A stretch of DNA of 64,000 nt from Terriglobia bacterium (GCA_965206645.1 CBDBKE010000004.1:1541552-1605551), one strand, 5' to 3'. Numbered from the stretch's first letter, positions 53,752 through 63,076 are shown. Numbers and translations: made by a program. Notes: a model not told the origin generated them from the sequence alone.

Positions 53752-55089
53752 ATGCTGGACTTGAATTTTGTACGAAAGAACCTGGACCTAGTAACCCAGA
53801 AACTGAGCGCGCGTGGTTTGACCAGCACTGGCCTGGAACGATTTCAGGAAATAGACACCAAACGCCGGCGGGCACTGACGGAAGTCGAAAAGCTGAAGAA
53901 CAGACGGAACGAAGCCAGCAAGAAAATTGCACATTTGAAACAGGGCGAGACGTTCACCCCATACGGTCCCCAGCCACCGGAGGGACTGAAAGAGCGATTC
54001 CGCGAGATGCGAGCGCTCTCCGACCAGATCAAGGAGATGGACGAGCGAGCGGGAAAGCTGGACGCCGAACTGCAAGAGCTACTGGCGGGCTTGCCGAATG
54101 TGCCGCACGAGACCGTGCCCGCCGGCCGCACCCCCGAGGACAACGTGGAAGTGCGTCGCTGGGGCACGCCGCCGCAGTTTTCCTTCACCCCGCGACCACA
54201 CTGGGAACTGGGAGAAGCGCTGGGCGTGCTGGACCTGGAGCGCGCGGCTAAGATCACCGGAGCGCGCTTCGCGGTCTACTGGGATCTGGGCGCGAAGCTG
54301 GAACGCGCCCTGCAGAACTTCATGCTCGACCTGCATACGCGCGAGCACGGCTACCTCGAAGTGCTGCCGCCTGCGATGGTAAATTCCGCCAGCCTGTTCG
54401 GAACCGGGCAGTTGCCCAAGTTCGCCGACGACCTGTTTAAGCTCGAAGGGCACGATCTCTGGCTGACCCCCACGGCCGAGGTGCAGTTGACGAACTTGTT
54501 CCGCGACGAAGTGCTGGAGACCGAGCAGCTCCCGATCAAGCTCTGCGCGTTTACCCCATGCTTCCGCAGCGAGGCGGGAAGCTACGGGAAAGACGTCCGC
54601 GGCATTATCCGCCAGCACCAGTTCCAGAAGGTGGAGCTGGTGAAGTTCACGCATCCGGAGCGCTCCTACGAGGAGCTGGAAGAGCTGACCCGCAACGCCG
54701 AAACCATTCTGCAAGAACTGGGGTTGCACTACCGTGTGGTGGCGCTATGCACTGGTGACCTGGGCTTCGCCTCCTCCAAGACCTACGACATCGAAGTCTG
54801 GACACCGGCTCAGGGCGTCTACCGGGAAATTTCTTCCTGTAGCAATTTTGAGTCCTACCAGGCGCGGCGCGCCAATTTGCGCTTCCGCCCACGGGCGCGG
54901 GGCAAGACCGAATTCGTGCACACCCTGAACGGCAGCGGCCTAGCGATCGGGCGCACTTGGCTGGCGATCGCGGAAAATTACCAACAGGAAGATGGCTCGG
55001 TTCTGCTTCCCGAGGTACTGCGCGGCTACCTGCACGGCGCCGAGCGCATTGCCGCCACGGGCAAACTGGTGGGCGCGCGATCCTCCTGA
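53752..55089 (+). CDS. serS: Seryl-tRNA synthetase
   Basis: N-terminal coiled-coil arm and class II motifs ([38 protein letters not shown]). Confidence 0.9.
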
Positions 55090-55113
55090 GCCGGTAGTGT
55101 CTCAGTTTGAATG

Positions 55114-56157
55114 TTAGCGGCTGCCTGTAAGTTCGTAGTGATCCCGCTCTTTGTCACACATCCAGGGCGGTTGCCTATTACCCCGGAAACCCGTTCCCGT
55201 TTCGGTACTAGCGGGTCCACCAACGGAGCCAGGAATGGGTGCATTGAGTCTGAACATCTGTGTTCCATTACATCCCGGATGCGTACAAGGTCTTGTTTCA
55301 TTCTCTGTCGGCATGATCTGTACCTCAACATTCAGTTTACCCAGAAGCGCGATTTCCTCTAAGTCCCAAACGTGATCGGCAACCCCAGCCTCCATTGCCG
55401 GTGTGACCCTGAGCGTCTTGTGGATACGGGCGAAGTTGTAGTACATGAAGTATAGGGCTAGCGCCGCCGCGTGGTTCTCTAGCTTCTTTGAAAACCCATT
55501 GGTCAATCGGGTGAACCTCCTCATGTACATGCGCATCGTGAGGTTCTGCCGCTCTATGTAGCTCGTGCTTATATGCTTTGGGTGAGGGTTCCCCATGACA
55601 ACGGTAGGAACCGCACCGATGCACTGTGCGGGACTGTGCCGCTTCTCCTGCTCGGAATCGGCCCCATACAGTTTGACCAGCATTGCGTAGTCAACGCCCG
55701 AACCAAAGGCACCTTCGACAGCGGTTAAATACGCCTTGTGACCGTCCGTTGTGAGTTGCACGCGATTCGCCAGCCGTCCAGCAAGATCGTCAATGAATTC
55801 CTTCGCCGTATGTGCATCGCGTGAACCGAGCCGCCAAGATAGAACTAACTTCGTATCCGCATCCATGGCCGTCCAGGTCCACACGTCGCCAGCGTGCCCG
55901 CGCTCCAGCATCTTCGGCGTGACGTTCTTTTCCTTCGCATAGACAAAACTCCAAATCTCATCGCACTGAATTCGGTTTAGCTTGAGATTACGGAACATGC
56001 GGTCCTGAAAGTCGGAGCACGCCGCGCCCACCTCGACCAGCAGCTTCGTGACGGTGTTGATAGAAACATCGGCCATGCGGCTAGTGGAGCGCAGGCTGCT
56101 ACCCTCAGCCAACATTCCAAGGATCGCGGTGCGTTTCTGAATTGGTAAGCGATTCAC
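55114..56157 (-). CDS. IS1/IS1595-family DDE transposase
   Basis: N-terminal HTH. C-terminal YIERQNLTMRMYMRRFTRLTNGFSKKLENHAAALALYFMYYNFARIH matches the InsB-like signature. Lower GC than its surroundings. Confidence 0.65.
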   Translation of the reverse strand: MNRLPIQKRTAILGMLAEGSSLRSTSRMADVSINTVTKLLVEVGAACSDFQDRMFRNLKLNRIQCDEIWSFVYAKEKNVTPKMLERGHAGDVWTWTAMDADTKLVLSWRLGSRDAHTAKEFIDDLAGRLANRVQLTTDGHKAYLTAVEGAFGSGVDYAMLVKLYGADSEQEKRHSPAQCIGAVPTVVMGNPHPKHISTSYIERQNLTMRMYMRRFTRLTNGFSKKLENHAAALALYFMYYNFARIHKTLRVTPAMEAGVADHVWDLEEIALLGKLNVEVQIMPTENETRPCTHPGCNGTQMFRLNAPIPGSVGGPASTETGTGFRGNRQPPWMCDKERDHYELTGSR

Positions 56158-56292
56158 GGTCCAAGCATAATGAACTCTCCATATTGCGTCAAGCAGTAAG
56201 TTCAGTTTAACGCCATCGGTTCAGTAGTGTATTGACATCATTCCCAGGGCTTGCTATGCTCATGCCCGGCGATTTCCCAAGGGCCATGATGA

Positions 56293-56589
56293 ATGGAAGT
56301 CAAGTTCAACGACAAAGACTTGGCGCTCATAGAGACAGACCGAGCGGCGGAGACGCGTCTGCCCGTATCCGTCATCAACTCTTCCAGACGGAAGTTAGTG
56401 GTGATTCGGGCGGCACCCGACGAGAGGACGTTAAGAAACTGGAAGAGTCTTCACTACGAGAAACTGGAGGGCAAGAAGAGCGGACGACGGTCGATCAGGC
56501 TGAACGACCAGTGGCGGGTAGTCTTTACTCTCAACACGGACTCCAAGCCAAACAAGATCACAGTCTTGGCAGTCGAGGACTATCACTGA
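56293..56589 (+). CDS. higB: HigB-like (RelE/ParE superfamily, plasmid-killer family) toxin
   Basis: WRVVFTLNTDSKPNKITVLAVEDYH C-terminal signature. Confidence 0.75.
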   Translation: MEVKFNDKDLALIETDRAAETRLPVSVINSSRRKLVVIRAAPDERTLRNWKSLHYEKLEGKKSGRRSIRLNDQWRVVFTLNTDSKPNKITVLAVEDYH

Positions 56590-56600
56590 AGGGGGCAACT

Positions 56601-57734
56601 ATGTCAGCCACGAACGCGAACTGGATTATGCACCCTGGGTTTTACATCAAGGAGGAGATGGAGGAGCGCGGCTGGCTCCAGCGCGACCTTGCTTTCATAC
56701 TCGGTTGCCCGGAGCAGGCGGTGAATATGATTCTGTCCGGTAAGCGCGGAATCAGCCCTGAGATGGCAAAGGCACTCGGCGAGGCATTCGATGTTCCGGC
56801 AGAGTTCTTTGCAAATCTCCAGCAGGCCTACGATATGGCGCAGGCACGCAACCCCGATCCGGGTGTCGCCGTGCGCCGGAACATGCAAAGCACCTACCCC
56901 GTGCGGGAAATGATAAAGCGGGGCTGGATCGAGTTGTCCGATCCGGCACTTCTTGAGTCTCAGCTTGCGAGGCTCTTTCAAGTTGGGGGCGCAGACAAAA
57001 TCCCGTATATGGCGCACCCCGCAAAGAAAAGTAGTTATGAAGAGCGAGATGTCCCGCCCGCTCAGTTGGCTTGGCTGTTCAGGGTTCGTCAGATAGCCAA
57101 GTCAATAAGCGTTCCTCGGTATTCCGAAAGGATGCTACGGCAGGCCCTAGCCGAAATGGAAACGCTGTTGATCGCCCCGGAGGAGGCTCGGTGTGTACCG
57201 CGTATTCTCACGGAGGTTGGAGTCCGTTATGTTCTGGTGGAGAAGCTACCGACCGCGAAAATTGACGGCGTGTGCTTCTGGTTGGATGGGCGCTCTCCGG
57301 TCATAGGCATGTCCCTACAGCACGACCGAATCGACAATTTTTGGTTTGTATTGAGGCACGAGATTGAACATGTCCTCCAGCGGCACGGGCAACAGCAGGA
57401 AATAATCGACGCCGACCTTGAAGGGGCAGGCGGCTCTGCGTGGGGTTCTGTTCCGCGAGAGGAGCAGATCGCAAATGGGGCGGCTGCTAACTTCTGCACC
57501 CCCACGGAAAGGCTGGAATCTTTCATCCGGCGCAAGCACCCCTTCTATTACGAAAAGGATGTCGTGGCGTTTTCTCGCACTCTAAACCGACATCCTGGCG
57601 TTGTGATTGGGCAGCTTCGTCGAAAGCTGGAACGGTACGACTACCTGACTCGCTACTTGGTCAAGATTCGACCGTTCGTGGTCTCCGGATCGATTGCAGA
57701 CGGCTGGGGACAGTTAGCACCAGTTTCTTTGTGA
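56601..57734 (+). CDS. higA: HigA-type XRE-HTH antitoxin fused to an ImmA/IrrE-family HExxH metallopeptidase domain
   Basis: N-terminal HTH (LQRDLAFILGCPEQAVNMILSGKRGISPEMAKALG). C-terminal HEIEH motif in a COG2856-like domain. AAGGGGG RBS. Directly follows higB. Confidence 0.7.
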   Translation: MSATNANWIMHPGFYIKEEMEERGWLQRDLAFILGCPEQAVNMILSGKRGISPEMAKALGEAFDVPAEFFANLQQAYDMAQARNPDPGVAVRRNMQSTYPVREMIKRGWIELSDPALLESQLARLFQVGGADKIPYMAHPAKKSSYEERDVPPAQLAWLFRVRQIAKSISVPRYSERMLRQALAEMETLLIAPEEARCVPRILTEVGVRYVLVEKLPTAKIDGVCFWLDGRSPVIGMSLQHDRIDNFWFVLRHEIEHVLQRHGQQQEIIDADLEGAGGSAWGSVPREEQIANGAAANFCTPTERLESFIRRKHPFYYEKDVVAFSRTLNRHPGVVIGQLRRKLERYDYLTRYLVKIRPFVVSGSIADGWGQLAPVSL

Positions 57735-57756
57735 AAGAAAGAATAGAGGTAGACCG

Positions 57757-58216
57757 ATGGCAACTAAAAACGAACAACTACAGCGGGTTTGGCACCACTA
57801 CGATAATCGGCAGGCACACAGGCCACTTAGTGCTCGACAGGCTGTTGAATGGGCTGTTGCGGAGGGACTGCTAGAACTCCCGGAAACCGATCCCTACGAC
57901 GTGCTTGCGGGTGAAATGTCACAGGCCCTTCGCGAGGAGTTCCAGACTGATGAAGAGGGGCGCAGATACAGGGTCAACCACGCTGTCCGCATTACCAAGA
58001 GTGGCGTCCAGCATACCTTCTGGGGGGTTATGGGTTACGCGCCGCACGATTACAATGGAGAAGGCTTTCGCACAGCGGCGTGAGCAGGTGGTCGGAGACC
58101 TTATGCAGCTCAAGACTGATGTTGATGTCTACAACGACATGAATAAGGGCAGGAGGCCTCCGATTCAGATTGAACTTGATTTTAGGGACGATGTGGCAGA
58201 GCGGCAGCAAGTATAG
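57757..58216 (+). pseudogene. Hypothetical protein, apparently frameshifted near 58060 (ORFs 57757..58083 and 57905..58216)
   Basis: Two overlapping same-strand ORFs in different frames. No domain recognised. Confidence 0.3.
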
Positions 58217-58235
58217 AAGGCTCCGCCCCGCAAGG

Positions 58236-58475
58236 CTACGGTTGTCGCCTAGACTTCTTCCAGCGAGCCTGAGCTGCTAGCTTAGCGATTTCTTGCCGCT
58301 GTTCTGACGTAAGGCGCTTTGCTCTGGCACGTCCGCCCTTCAGACCCCCAGCTCTCCTCTTAGAAGGCATCTTCTTGGCCTCGCTGAGGGTATCTTCAAC
58401 CTCACCGGTAGCAATGTCTAGGATCAGCTTGGCTAGCTGGTTTGGATCGCGTGGGCGCTTTGGACCCCCTTGCAC
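58236..58475 (-). CDS. Small basic hypothetical protein (Lys/Arg-rich, possibly DNA-binding)
   Basis: 79-aa ORF with KRRAGGLKGGRARAKRL. Low-GC island context. Confidence 0.25.
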   Translation of the reverse strand: MQGGPKRPRDPNQLAKLILDIATGEVEDTLSEAKKMPSKRRAGGLKGGRARAKRLTSEQRQEIAKLAAQARWKKSRRQP

Positions 58476-58613
58476 TCTGTCAGTATGCCACGCTTAACAG
58501 ACCCCCGCCATCCCTAGTCACTCCCAAACTGAGACACTACCCCCGAGCCAGTCGTGTTGCCAATCCTGCCGCACTTTTGCTATATTGTTTGGTGGTCTTT
58601 GCGCCCACCACAT

Positions 58614-58690
<77 letters not shown>

Positions 58691-58730
58691 ATCATAACCG
58701 CGAACTTTTGCGGTCTGTTAGTTAACGCAA

Positions 58731-58765
58731 GACCCCGACGGACGGCCCCGCCGGGGTCTTGTCGT
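58731..58765 (+). terminator. Hairpin GACCCCG-N14-CGGGGTC followed by a weak T-tract, downstream of the tRNA
   Basis: Read directly. Confidence 0.35.
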
Positions 58766-59318
58766 ATCTGGCGCTTTTCCAATCGCTTGCGCCGACCTAC
58801 ACATTCTTTCCGATTCTCCAGTTCGTAAACTGACGCACGGGGTAGCGCGTGCAACCATGGGGGTTGCGCACGCCCCCCCAAGATATCGTTTACGGATTCT
58901 CCCATTCTCCATTTAACATCCCGCTTTATTTAACGGCCCGGTTGCACGCGGACCACCGAAAGTGACACTTTTTCACTCGCTCCGGTAAGTATCTATTCCG
59001 GTAAGTATCTATATAGAAGCCGGGCCAAGAGGGTCCGGCGGATCACCAGACAGCGGCGGCGGCCGTGAAAACGGAGCCCGTTGTGGGTGCCGGCGACATC
59101 GCCTGGTGCGGTGTCGAGCGGACTCCATCGGCTCCTGACGACCGTTTCCGTCCCACGCGGCATCCACAGCACCTCCTCTTCCGCGGCCTCCCGCCAAGGA
59201 GGACCGGATGCCGACCAACGCAAACATCCCACCCTCCCGCGATGAAGTGATCGCGGAGATCGCCTCGATCCTGGCCCAAGGCTGCCTGCGCCTCCGGAAG
59301 AGTCGACGAATCTCGCCC

Positions 59319-59710
59319 GAGATTGGGAACGAGGCCGGGAAAGGCAAGTATTCTCAGGCGCTTACGGAGAATCGACTTGATCGTTCGGGCCACCGAAGCG
59401 TTCATGAATGAACGAGTTAACGCCCCGAAACGGCAAGGCGGAGGGACCGCCCGCCAGAGGGTGAGTCCATGAACAGGAGGAAATTGAATGAAAGCAAGCA
59501 CCTATCAACAGATCGAGATTGGGAACGAGGCCGGGAAAGGCAAGTATTCTCAGGCGCTTACGGAGAATCGACTTGATCGTTCGGGCCACCGAAGCGTTCA
59601 TGAATGAACGAGTTAACGCCCCGAAACGGCAAGGCGGAGGGACCGCCCGCCAGAGGGTGAGTCCATGAACAGGAGGAAATTGAATGAAAGCAAGCACCTA
59701 TCAACAGATC
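59319..59710. repeat. Perfect tandem duplication, 2 x 196 bp, spanning the RBS and first 9 codons of the DUF2924 gene
   Basis: Copy 1 is 59319-59514 and copy 2 is 59515-59710, identical by eye. Minus ORFs 59043..59501 and 59362..59697 share identical N-termini as a consequence. Confidence 0.85.
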
Positions 59711-60216
59711 CAGGAGCTGTCCCGACTGACCGTGGGCCAGCTCCGGGACAAGCACCTGGATGTCTTCGGTGAGGAGAGCCGCTGCCACCACAAGGCGGCC
59801 CTGCAAAAGCGCATCGCCTGGCGCCTGCAGGCCCTGGCCGAGGGCGGCCTCTCCGAGCGGGCCCGCCGGCGTGCCGAGGAACTGGCCAACGACGCCGATC
59901 TCAGAATGCGCGCCCCGCGTGATCCGATCCGGCCCGGCTCAGCGGAGGTGAGGGCTCGAACGGCGAAGAGCCGCATCCCGCCCTCGCGAGATCCGCGACT
60001 ACCCGTGCCCGGCACACTGCTGGTGCGGGAGTTTCGGGGGCGCGACGTGGTGGTCAAGGTGCTCGATGAGGGCTTCGAGTTCGAGGACCGGCGCTATCCG
60101 TCTCTGTCGGCCATCGCCAAGGAAATCACGGGCAGCAAATGGAACGGGTTCTTGTTCTTCAGCCTCACCGGTGGTGACGCAGCCGCGAGCGGGCGTCACC
60201 ATCAGGGGGTGAGCGA

Positions 60217-60220
<4 letters not shown>
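59684..60220 (+). CDS. DUF2924-family protein (recombinase-associated)
   Basis: PGTLLVREFRGRDVVVKVLDEGFEFEDRRYPSLSAIAKEITGSKWNGFLFF matches the DUF2924 consensus. AGGAGG RBS. Precedes a large serine recombinase. Confidence 0.75.
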
Positions 60221-61770
<1,550 letters not shown>

Positions 61771-61773
<3 letters not shown>

Positions 61774-63076
61774 CCTGACCGGCACTTTTTGTACCAAGTG
61801 GAAAGAGAGAGAATCCACTTGAGGAGGAAGTGAGGTCATGCCGACAAGGAGTTACAAGCCGGAGCAGATTGTAGCGGTGCTACGGCAGATAGAAGTGCAG
61901 ATGGGGAACGGGAAGACTGCGCCCCAAAAAGAAGCTGGAATCCACACCCAAACCTACTACCGGTGGCGGAAGGAATACGGCGGGCTGAAGGTGGTGCAGG
62001 CAAAACGGCTAAAGGAGTTGGAGAAGGAAAACACGCGGCTGAAGCGGTTGGTAGCGGAGCTTTCTCTGGAGAAGCAGGTGCTGCGGGATGTGGCACAGGG
62101 AAACTTCTGAGCCCTGAGCGGCGGCGTTGTGCGGTGGAGCGTGCGTGGGAGCAACACGGGTTGTCGGAACGGCATGCCTGCCGGCTGCTGGAGCAATGGC
62201 GAGGGACACAACGATACGAGCCGATTCATCGGGTGGACGAGGATGCTCTGACCCGAGCGATCATTGCCCTGGGAGCGAAGTACGGGCGATATGGCTACCG
62301 GAGGATCACAGCGTTGCTGCGGAGTGCGGGCTGGGAAGTGGGCAAGGACCGGGTGCAGCGGATTTGGCGGCGGGAAGGGCTGAAAGTGCCGCAAAAACAA
62401 AGGCCGCGAGGACGGCTGTGGCTGAACGACGGTTCCTGTGTACGACTGAGGCCGGAGCGACCGAACCACGTGTGGAGCTACGACTTCATGAGTGCCAGAA
62501 CGCACGAGGGGAGAACGCTGCGGCTGCTGACCTTGCTGGATGAGTACACGCGGGAATGCCTGGCGATCCGGGTGGAGCGGAGGATGGGCAGCCAACAAAT
62601 CATTGAGGCGTTGTCGGACGTGATGTTGTGGCGAGGGATACCGGAACAGATTCGATCCGACAATGGTCCCGAGTTCATCGCCAAACAACTGCGCCAGTGG
62701 TTGGCAAATCTAGGGACCGGGACACTGTACATCGAACCGGGCAGTCCCTGGGAGAACGGGTACTGCGAGAGTTTCAATGGGAAGCTGCGGGACGAATGCC
62801 TGAATGGAGAGATCTTCTACTCGTTGAAGGAGGCACAGGTGGTGATTGAACAGTGGAGGGTGCAATACAACACGGTGCGGCCGCACTCGGCGCTCGGCTA
62901 TAGGCCCCCGGCGCCGGGGGCCTATAGCATGATTCGCTCCAGAATTCTGGTGTTTCGATCTTCGCCGAGTCGCCGGTCCGGGAGTCTGCCTCCCCTGCCA
63001 CTGAAACCAGTTTCACAGCCCCAGGCTGCGATGTAAACTCTCACTACGGTTGGTACAAAAAATCGGTCTGGTCACA
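61771..63076 (+). mobile_element. IS3-family insertion sequence, copy 1. orfA is 61838..62110 (HTH) and orfB is ~62100..63036 (DDE integrase core) in the -1 frame
   Basis: Imperfect terminal IRs: TGACCTGACCGGCACTTTTTGTACCAAGTGG at ~61771 and TGTGACCAGACCGATTTTTTGTACCAACCG (reverse complement) at ~63076. orfB carries DDE motifs (WSYDFM, LDEYTRE, SDNGPEF...E). Confidence 0.75.

Follow-up and report, generated by a model that had tools for sequence, protein, structure and literature searches.

A perfect 196-bp tandem duplication, probably recent and neutral, in a decaying serine-recombinase mini-element of a Terriglobia bacterium

In a 64,000-nucleotide stretch of DNA from a Terriglobia bacterium (the window; positions are counted from its first letter), two identical segments of 196 bp directly follow one another at the start of a gene for a DUF2924 protein. 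How did this repeat arise, is it real DNA of the organism, and does it have any bearing on the serine recombinase gene behind it? A preliminary description of the locus had reported a perfect head-to-tail duplication, which was confirmed by TRF, a repeat search, and blastn, with a start one base to the left of the position 59319 given there.

59318 to 59513, no strand assigned: 196-bp unit, copy 1 (direct reading, TRF, repeat search, blastn)
59514 to 59709, no strand assigned: 196-bp unit, copy 2, identical to copy 1 (direct reading, TRF, repeat search, blastn)

TRF returned the region from 59318 to 59710 with a period of 196, 2.0 copies, 100% matches, no indels, and a score of 786. The repeat search gave both copies (59318-59513 and 59514-59709) at 100%, and a blastn comparison of the unit with the whole window gave exactly two matches, namely, the abutting copies. 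In this register, the unit opens with the C at 59318, nothing stands between the two copies, and the novel junction falls at 59513/59514, where the sequence reads CAACAGAT/CGAGATTGGG; the parental breakpoints are 59317/59318 and 59709/59710. The microhomology at the breakpoints amounts to 1 bp, the C alone (59318 = 59514 = 59710). Among the tandem repeats of the 64-kb window, no other exceeds a period of 20, and a perfect 196-bp repeat cannot be the work of chance. For recognition of the duplication in other samples, the 31-mer ACCTATCAACAGATCGAGATTGGGAACGAGG can be used.

The locus was compared with 90 related loci. Eighty of them (L001 to L080) came from a one-genome-per-species scan with the DUF2924 protein, the nearest being Bryobacterales (Acidobacteriota) metagenome-assembled genomes (MAGs) with 89 to 98% protein identity; the total includes ten ENA contigs encoding a 99%-identical version of a small protein described below. 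Three reading frames are found at and around the duplication.

59208 to 59411, plus strand: small gene, 67 aa, no known family (codon-position variation, in-frame indel, conserved motifs)
59488 to 59607, plus strand: chimeric 39-aa ORF (ORF listing and alignment with the small-protein family)
59684 to 60220, plus strand: DUF2924 gene, 178 aa, intact (Pfam PF11149, E = 1.8e-43)

The unit extends from the variable middle of the 67-aa small gene, in which the left breakpoint lies, to codon 9 of DUF2924. Copy 1 accordingly contains the small gene's final 30 codons, a 76-nt spacer with AGGAGG, and DUF2924 codons 1 to 9. That each unit includes an AGGAGG ribosome-binding site (RBS) and nine DUF2924 codons had been noted before and was verified by direct reading, with AGGAGG at 59475-59480 and 59671-59676 and the ATG at 59488 and 59684 in copies 1 and 2, respectively. 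Copy 1 had also been said to yield a 39-aa decoy ORF and copy 2 the real gene. Both the ORF and the intact DUF2924 gene are present, but the supposed decoy is an in-frame fusion with the small gene, which had been overlooked. Specifically, DUF2924 residues 1 to 9 are followed in this ORF (MKASTYQQIEIGNEAG...RSVHE) by the final 30 residues of the small protein, in which the conserved C-terminal motif (TENRLDRSGHRSVHE / TENRLDRSGHRS) is retained. It is not a conserved regulatory upstream ORF, as it is owed to the private junction only; relatives have at the same place just the small gene of 67 to 75 aa, followed by DUF2924. An exact-product look-up in the sequence collection found no gene on record with exactly the 39-aa product.

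By its pattern of variation, the ORF at 59208-59411 is a real gene. Across 23 loci, third-position entropy is 0.72 versus 0.32 to 0.45 (N-terminal part), and the middle of the gene shows an in-frame 9-nt indel. Two motifs, EV..EIA.ILA.GY.R.RK at the N terminus and TE.RLD.SGHRS.H at the C terminus, persist across clades and differ at synonymous sites in distant members. Throughout the element family (L001 to L045, P0001 to P0007), the gene is always located 5' of DUF2924 and encodes 67 to 75 aa. Seven protein clusters match the small protein, all without a name, and no match was obtained in Pfam or PHROG. A minus-strand ORF at 59043-59501 was ruled out as a real gene, since variation peaks at the third positions of the small ORF on the plus strand. 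The DUF2924 protein aligns over residues 1 to 178 with those of L001 to L003 (89 to 98% identity), and its stop codon overlaps the recombinase start (ATGA at 60217-60220). No solved structure was found among DUF2924 homologues, and a literature search found no functional study of DUF2924. The preliminary description had counted this gene among recombination directionality functions, for which we see no basis; the published view that we found is a partial match to the predicted DNA-binding RAMA domain (PMC11342252).

Where the duplication lies with respect to the surrounding mobile element was deduced from the position at which homology between loci begins.

58614 to 58688, plus strand: tRNA-Asn (GTT) with encoded CCA, integration target (ARAGORN; Rfam tRNA, 74.5 bits)
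58689 to 59207, plus strand: conserved noncoding leader, about 520 nt (RNAalifold on 16 loci, pair counts)
60217 to 61732, plus strand: large serine recombinase pseudogene (Pfam, translation, nucleotide comparison with L045, single-nucleotide polymorphism [SNP] table)

In six loci without the tRNA (L002, L010, L015, L082, L085, and L089), element homology starts at 58682, the sequence from there onward being the last 7 nt of tRNA-Asn (GGAGCCA). This start places attL at about 58682 and makes everything to its right element DNA; the crossover itself would have taken place at about 58681/58682, inside GGAGCCA. A tRNA on the same strand is found shortly upstream in 43 loci, and in 37 of these it is tRNA-Asn, which is thus a conserved host target with the element downstream of it. 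In the closest clade, the tRNA precedes DUF2924 by 780 to 800 nt. On this map, the duplication is inside a serine-recombinase element of roughly 3.5 to 4 kb, which comprises, in this order, the attL at tRNA-Asn, the leader of about 520 nt, the small ORF, DUF2924, the large serine recombinase, and a protein that faintly matches ParB-HTH. The recombinase measures 537 to 564 aa and the final protein 143 to 219 aa in the clade nearest the window. The duplication had been described as lying next to the tRNA-Asn, between it and the recombinase module, and hence in the presumed attachment region. The order is right, but the tRNA 3' end is 630 bp upstream and does not immediately adjoin the repeat; with attL some 635 bp upstream, the duplicated DNA is internal to the element and does not belong to its attachment region.

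A conserved arm, GGTTATGAAGAGGGTTGC.CA.GG followed by GGAGCCA, was observed in five loci (L002:9183, L010:9172, L082:2468, L085:2467, and L077:13246). In L002, L010, L082, and L085, the element has this arm on its left in place of the tRNA body (attP-like or tandem junctions); in L077, the arm occurs about 3.2 kb downstream of DUF2924, at the element's right end (attR-like). Arm and GGAGCCA together would allow attP and attB to be reconstructed for this recombinase family. An invariant block at 59352-59428 with the palindrome CGTTCAT-GA-ATGAACG was considered as an att core or crossover site and ruled out, as the junction maps to 58682. The loss of homology in L001 at 59362 reflects an IS fragment 100% identical to the IS of L045. 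Other clades lack the palindrome and have CTTCATTCATTCAC instead.

The flank to the left of the tRNA (55000-58600) has a lower G+C content (0.55 versus about 0.62) and contains an IS1-like transposase gene (55114-56157), an ORF for a HigB-like toxin (56293-56589), an HTH_3/IrrE-like gene (ending at 57734), and small ORFs. The flank probably represents a further mobile insertion on the upstream side of the tRNA. No match to it was found in the 80 genome loci (L001 to L080). From 56192 rightward, it is common to L081 (99.0%), and shorter stretches are shared with L084 (99.6% from 57906) and with L083, L086, and L088 (97 to 98%, from 58189 or 58526), so that contigs representing the same locus are available.

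As for the leader, RNAalifold predicts a hairpin at 58698-58713, a terminator-like GC hairpin at 58730-58759, helices at 59085-59092/59158-59165 and 59094-59102/59108-59116, and an anti-Shine-Dalgarno (SD)-like stretch at 58809-58819 that would pair with the RBS of the small ORF (59198-59207). The leader alignment has 14 helices with covariation, in which 95.3% of cells are paired versus 34 to 50% in slid controls; pairs changed on both sides number 25 versus 6 to 12 in slid and 11.1 ± 2.2 in shuffled alignments (0/500). The leader is therefore probably a structured RNA by these models, and it may be a new cis-regulatory RNA of the serine-recombinase operon; it has no match in Rfam. ATTCTCC occurs three times as an invariant or nearly invariant motif (58813, 58896, and 58904), with one occurrence predicted to pair with the RBS of the small ORF. 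The equivalent region is conserved across phyla (loci L003 to L080).

The element as a whole, at about 3.5 kb, is 88 to 97% identical at the nucleotide level among MAGs of very different groups (L006 to L021, L040, and L080; e.g., L014:9126-12700), comprising Zixibacteria, Acidobacteriota, Fibrobacteraceae, Syntrophobacteraceae, Desulfosoma, Ozemobacter, Nitrospiraceae, Anaerolinea, and Desulfobacterium, and these copies are almost always located beside tRNA-Asn. Such identity across phyla reflects either very recent transfer between phyla or mis-binning.

The comparison with related genomes that had been proposed for this locus speaks for a derived state in the window. According to blastn and alignments, related loci share the entire region extending from the tRNA to the recombinase. 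The unit is retained (at least 60 nt) in 39 of the 90 loci, and orthologous loci carry the 196-bp segment once: it is single in 39/39 and present twice in none. Consistently, TRF detected no tandem repeat at the equivalent region of the 80 genome loci, and in all ten ENA contigs the gap between the small ORF and DUF2924 is 76 nt, as expected for a single copy. Between the end of the tRNA and the start of DUF2924 there are 995 nt in the window and 783 nt in L005; the surplus equals 196 + 16. As judged from this set of loci, the 196-bp duplication is private to the lineage of the window. It is also very recent, as had been concluded before from its perfect identity: two G>A SNPs private to the window, at 59429 and 59487, are repeated in copy 2 at 59625 and 59683, and hence the duplication postdates them.

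The additional 16 nt are accounted for by a second, shorter duplication in the leader.

58981 to 59012, no strand assigned: perfect 16-bp tandem duplication, two copies of TCCGGTAAGTATCTAT (TRF)

This duplication has no junction homology. Both of its copies are found in L090 (positions 90-121), a short-read scaffold assembled independently from another sample, in which the 196-bp unit is single, and the segment is single copy in all other relatives. The 16-bp duplication is thus real and older than the 196-bp event, and its occurrence in an independent assembly means that such events do take place in this DNA.

The recombinase gene downstream of DUF2924 is no longer functional as it stands. 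Its domains are readily recognized (Resolvase PF00239, 2.3e-37; Recombinase PF07508, 4.6e-13; Zn-ribbon PF13408, 1.5e-13), and the orthologue in L045 matches a PHROG integrase. A private CAG>TAG change has created a stop at 61528-61530, in codon 438 of about 537. Moreover, homology to intact relatives stops at 61732, the last 98 nt or so having been replaced by an insertion sequence.

61733 to 63074, plus strand: IS3-family insertion sequence (Pfam HTH_Tnp_1, rve, rve_3; inverted repeats)
61838 to 62110: IS3 orfA
61963 to 63036: IS3 orfB

The inverted repeats of this IS3 are located at 61786-61809 and 63038-63061, and the sequence is 99% identical to the IS3 in L083 and L086. A second, diverged IS3 copy (about 80% identical) extends from about 63095 to the end of the window. 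At the 3' end of orfB (62897-62928), the IS3 has a perfect 32-bp palindrome (GCTATAGGCCCCCGGC/GCCGGGGGCCTATAGC), which is also present in the IS3 of L083. In the window, the palindrome is directly followed by an extra in-frame 60 nt (62929-62988). These were considered as a further duplication, and this was rejected, no direct or inverted match of at least 16 nt being found elsewhere in the window. The element's right end is not encountered again up to the end of the window, and the combination of an intact recombinase and both ends, as expected of a mobile copy, is not found here.

Related copies are eroded as well: DUF2924 is interrupted by IS3 in L083, L086, and L088 and has an internal deletion in L045, an IS3 or IS1595 insertion is found in the leader of L084 and of L045/L087, and P0004 has a frameshift in the small ORF. 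Two element copies about 29 kb apart (L084 and L085) were observed on one contig of 3.87 Mb, each with a full-length recombinase ORF of 537 aa, one at tRNA-Asn and the other beside a giant cadherin-like gene. The family thus appears to be active, now or recently, in that species.

From this anatomy, we consider it likely, with some reserve, that the repeat is a recent, private, and probably neutral illegitimate duplication in a decaying serine-recombinase mini-element. A very recent tandem duplication private to the lineage would have occurred inside the integrated, decaying element, by RecA-independent strand misalignment or by end joining during replication or repair, and would have joined the point after 59709 to the point before 59318, with one base in common. 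No original sequence would have been destroyed, since the small gene is intact in copy 1 and DUF2924 in copy 2; the sole new object would be the junction, which gives the in-frame 39-aa chimeric ORF behind a strong RBS. The duplication would be a selectively neutral lesion, one of several that the element has accumulated under relaxed selection. As the recombinase is already dead, owing to the stop codon and the IS3, neutrality is most probable. Note that a separate function is conceivable for DUF2924 and the small gene, both of which are still intact.

Regarding the mechanism, replication slippage had been proposed. Strand misalignment or end joining during replication or repair is the route that we favor, but the direct repeat of several base pairs that classical slippage would have at its breakpoints is absent. 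With C alone common to both, the 1-bp junction homology makes illegitimate or nonhomologous a better label than slippage. The left breakpoint touches a palindrome with 7-bp arms, AATCTCG-CC-CGAGATT (59309-59324), which is found in a subclade consisting of the window and 11 close relatives (L045 and L081 to L090); only 0.4% of window positions are as near to such a palindrome. A hairpin at the left breakpoint was rejected as the trigger, as the DNA fold does not favor it and is no better than those of shuffled sequences (z = 0.18). Likewise, a target-site duplication of a transposon was ruled out, because the copies touch with no insert between them and 196 bp is far too long; target-site duplications typically measure about 2 to 14 bp.

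The strongest competitor of an illegitimate duplication is an artifact of assembly or consensus, either an untrimmed 196-bp overlap or an extra traversal of a graph loop, in which case the true genome would have a single copy. Perfect identity combined with 1-bp junction homology is what artificial concatenation would be expected to produce, and an overlap of 0 to 2 bp is what an artificial join would show; simulated chimeras serve as the comparison for such short-overlap joins (PMC3411829). In addition, the junction was not found beyond the window, either in the 90 related loci or in exact-product look-ups of DUF2924, the 39-aa ORF, the small ORF, and an 816-aa neighbor, and all ten nearest relatives, contigs from the same locus included, have a single copy. 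On the other hand, the 16-bp sister duplication, an event of the same kind, is confirmed by the independent assembly L090. The contig also runs through several IS copies, which suggests that the reads were able to span 392 bp. Finally, phylogenetic affinity is constant across the junction: the SNPs group the window with the clade of L081, L083, L084, L085, and L088 on both sides, and a chimeric join of two strains was rejected on this ground. The intact genes and the in-frame junction are compatible with either origin, and two JGI metagenome scans with the unit sequences, which gave no matches, are uninformative either way. All told, an artifact is less likely than a real duplication, though of appreciable probability, and the duplicated contig sequence probably represents genomic DNA.

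Considerably less probable is an adaptive or regulatory duplication, in which a second leader or the 39-aa peptide would alter the DUF2924-recombinase module or the repeat would act as a RecA-dependent reversible switch. The unit does include the small gene's most conserved portion and the spacer, and among close relatives the C-terminal 60 nt of that gene are not relaxed at third positions. The junction is in frame, the stop-to-start geometry upstream of DUF2924 is unchanged, and a pairing is predicted in 15/15 sequences between the stop region of the small ORF (GCSUUCAU) and the DUF2924 start (AUGRAAGC). Against this, the duplication is found in one genome only, an in-frame junction has a 1-in-3 chance anyway, and the pairing is invariant, with no compensatory changes, and hence uninformative. 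A structured RNA or attenuator within the unit was rejected, with RNAalifold giving 17 pairs, none of them compensatory, and a fold of the single sequence that is no more stable than those of shuffled sequences (z = -1.16). The unit also has no promoter-like site, a search for sigma-70-like promoters in it having given 0 matches. Distant relatives vary the conserved block at synonymous sites, so that the constraint is mainly on the C-terminal motif of the small protein. Above all, the recombinase that would be regulated is a pseudogene, and the effect on the expression of recombination functions that had been envisaged is probably moot. More specifically, it is very improbable that the 39-aa peptide with TENRLDRSGHRS modulates the DUF2924/recombinase machinery, for example, that of intact sister copies, or that the repeat serves as a reversible switch.

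That the recombinase of the element itself made the duplication, by unequal exchange between pseudo-att sites on sister chromosomes, is scarcely credible, for all that its gene adjoins the repeat and that AGGAGC, located 2 nt rightward of the right breakpoint, is loosely similar to the att core GGAGCC: in serine integrases, the strands are exchanged at a 2-bp central dinucleotide that is identical in both sites and flanked by recognizable half-sites of about 20 to 25 bp (PMC3783163), whereas the parental sites here have 1 bp in common and no in-register 2-bp core; exchange at the CC dinucleotide would give CAACAGATCCCGAGATT, with an extra C, in place of the observed CAACAGATCGAGATT; and the sequences flanking the breakpoints agree with the B, P, and P' arms at 20 and 18 of 48 positions, compared to 18.8 ± 1.8 for random positions, 30% and 76% of which score at least as high. 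The recombinase-mediated origin put forward earlier thus finds no support in the breakpoints, which do not resemble att sites.

An illegitimate duplication of this kind is in itself a minor matter, one more young structural mutation in an element eroded by insertion sequences, a nonsense mutation, and small duplications. In annotation, no regulatory design should be inferred from the additional 39-aa ORF or the doubling of the RBS. The more useful context is the compact element that targets tRNA-Asn, with its precise left junction, small gene, covarying leader RNA, and identity across phyla.

Viewed as a mutation, the repeat is of an ordinary type, the short tandem duplication, and its place is new. 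It resembles the spontaneous tandem duplications with short junctions known from bacteria in that the copies are perfect, head to tail, a few hundred bases long, and absent from sister lineages and in that the original sequence is kept whole and one novel junction is added. It differs from verified spontaneous duplications in Salmonella, whose junctions show microhomology of at least 11 bp (PMC3411829), as opposed to 1 bp here. Duplications from untrimmed assembly overlaps likewise have identical adjacent copies and essentially no junction homology, but at the present junction there is no contig end, circularization point, or change of strain affinity. The gene order has a counterpart in the WO prophage regions of Wolbachia, in which a recombinase gene is located immediately downstream of a DUF2924 gene (PMC10299305); those pairs belong to large prophages of an alphaproteobacterium, and no duplication of a leader has been described for them. 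With respect to elements of large serine recombinases of the phiC31, Bxb1, and A118 type, the present one is tiny (about 3.5 to 4 kb), has no obvious cargo, and targets the 3' end of tRNA-Asn; furthermore, its recombinase gene is preceded by the predicted leader, the small ORF, and DUF2924, and the copy in the window appears to be inactivated. It has in common with them the combination of Resolvase, Recombinase, and zinc-ribbon domains, a fixed host target, and attL-, attP-, and attR-like junctions with a short common core, here GGAGCCA.
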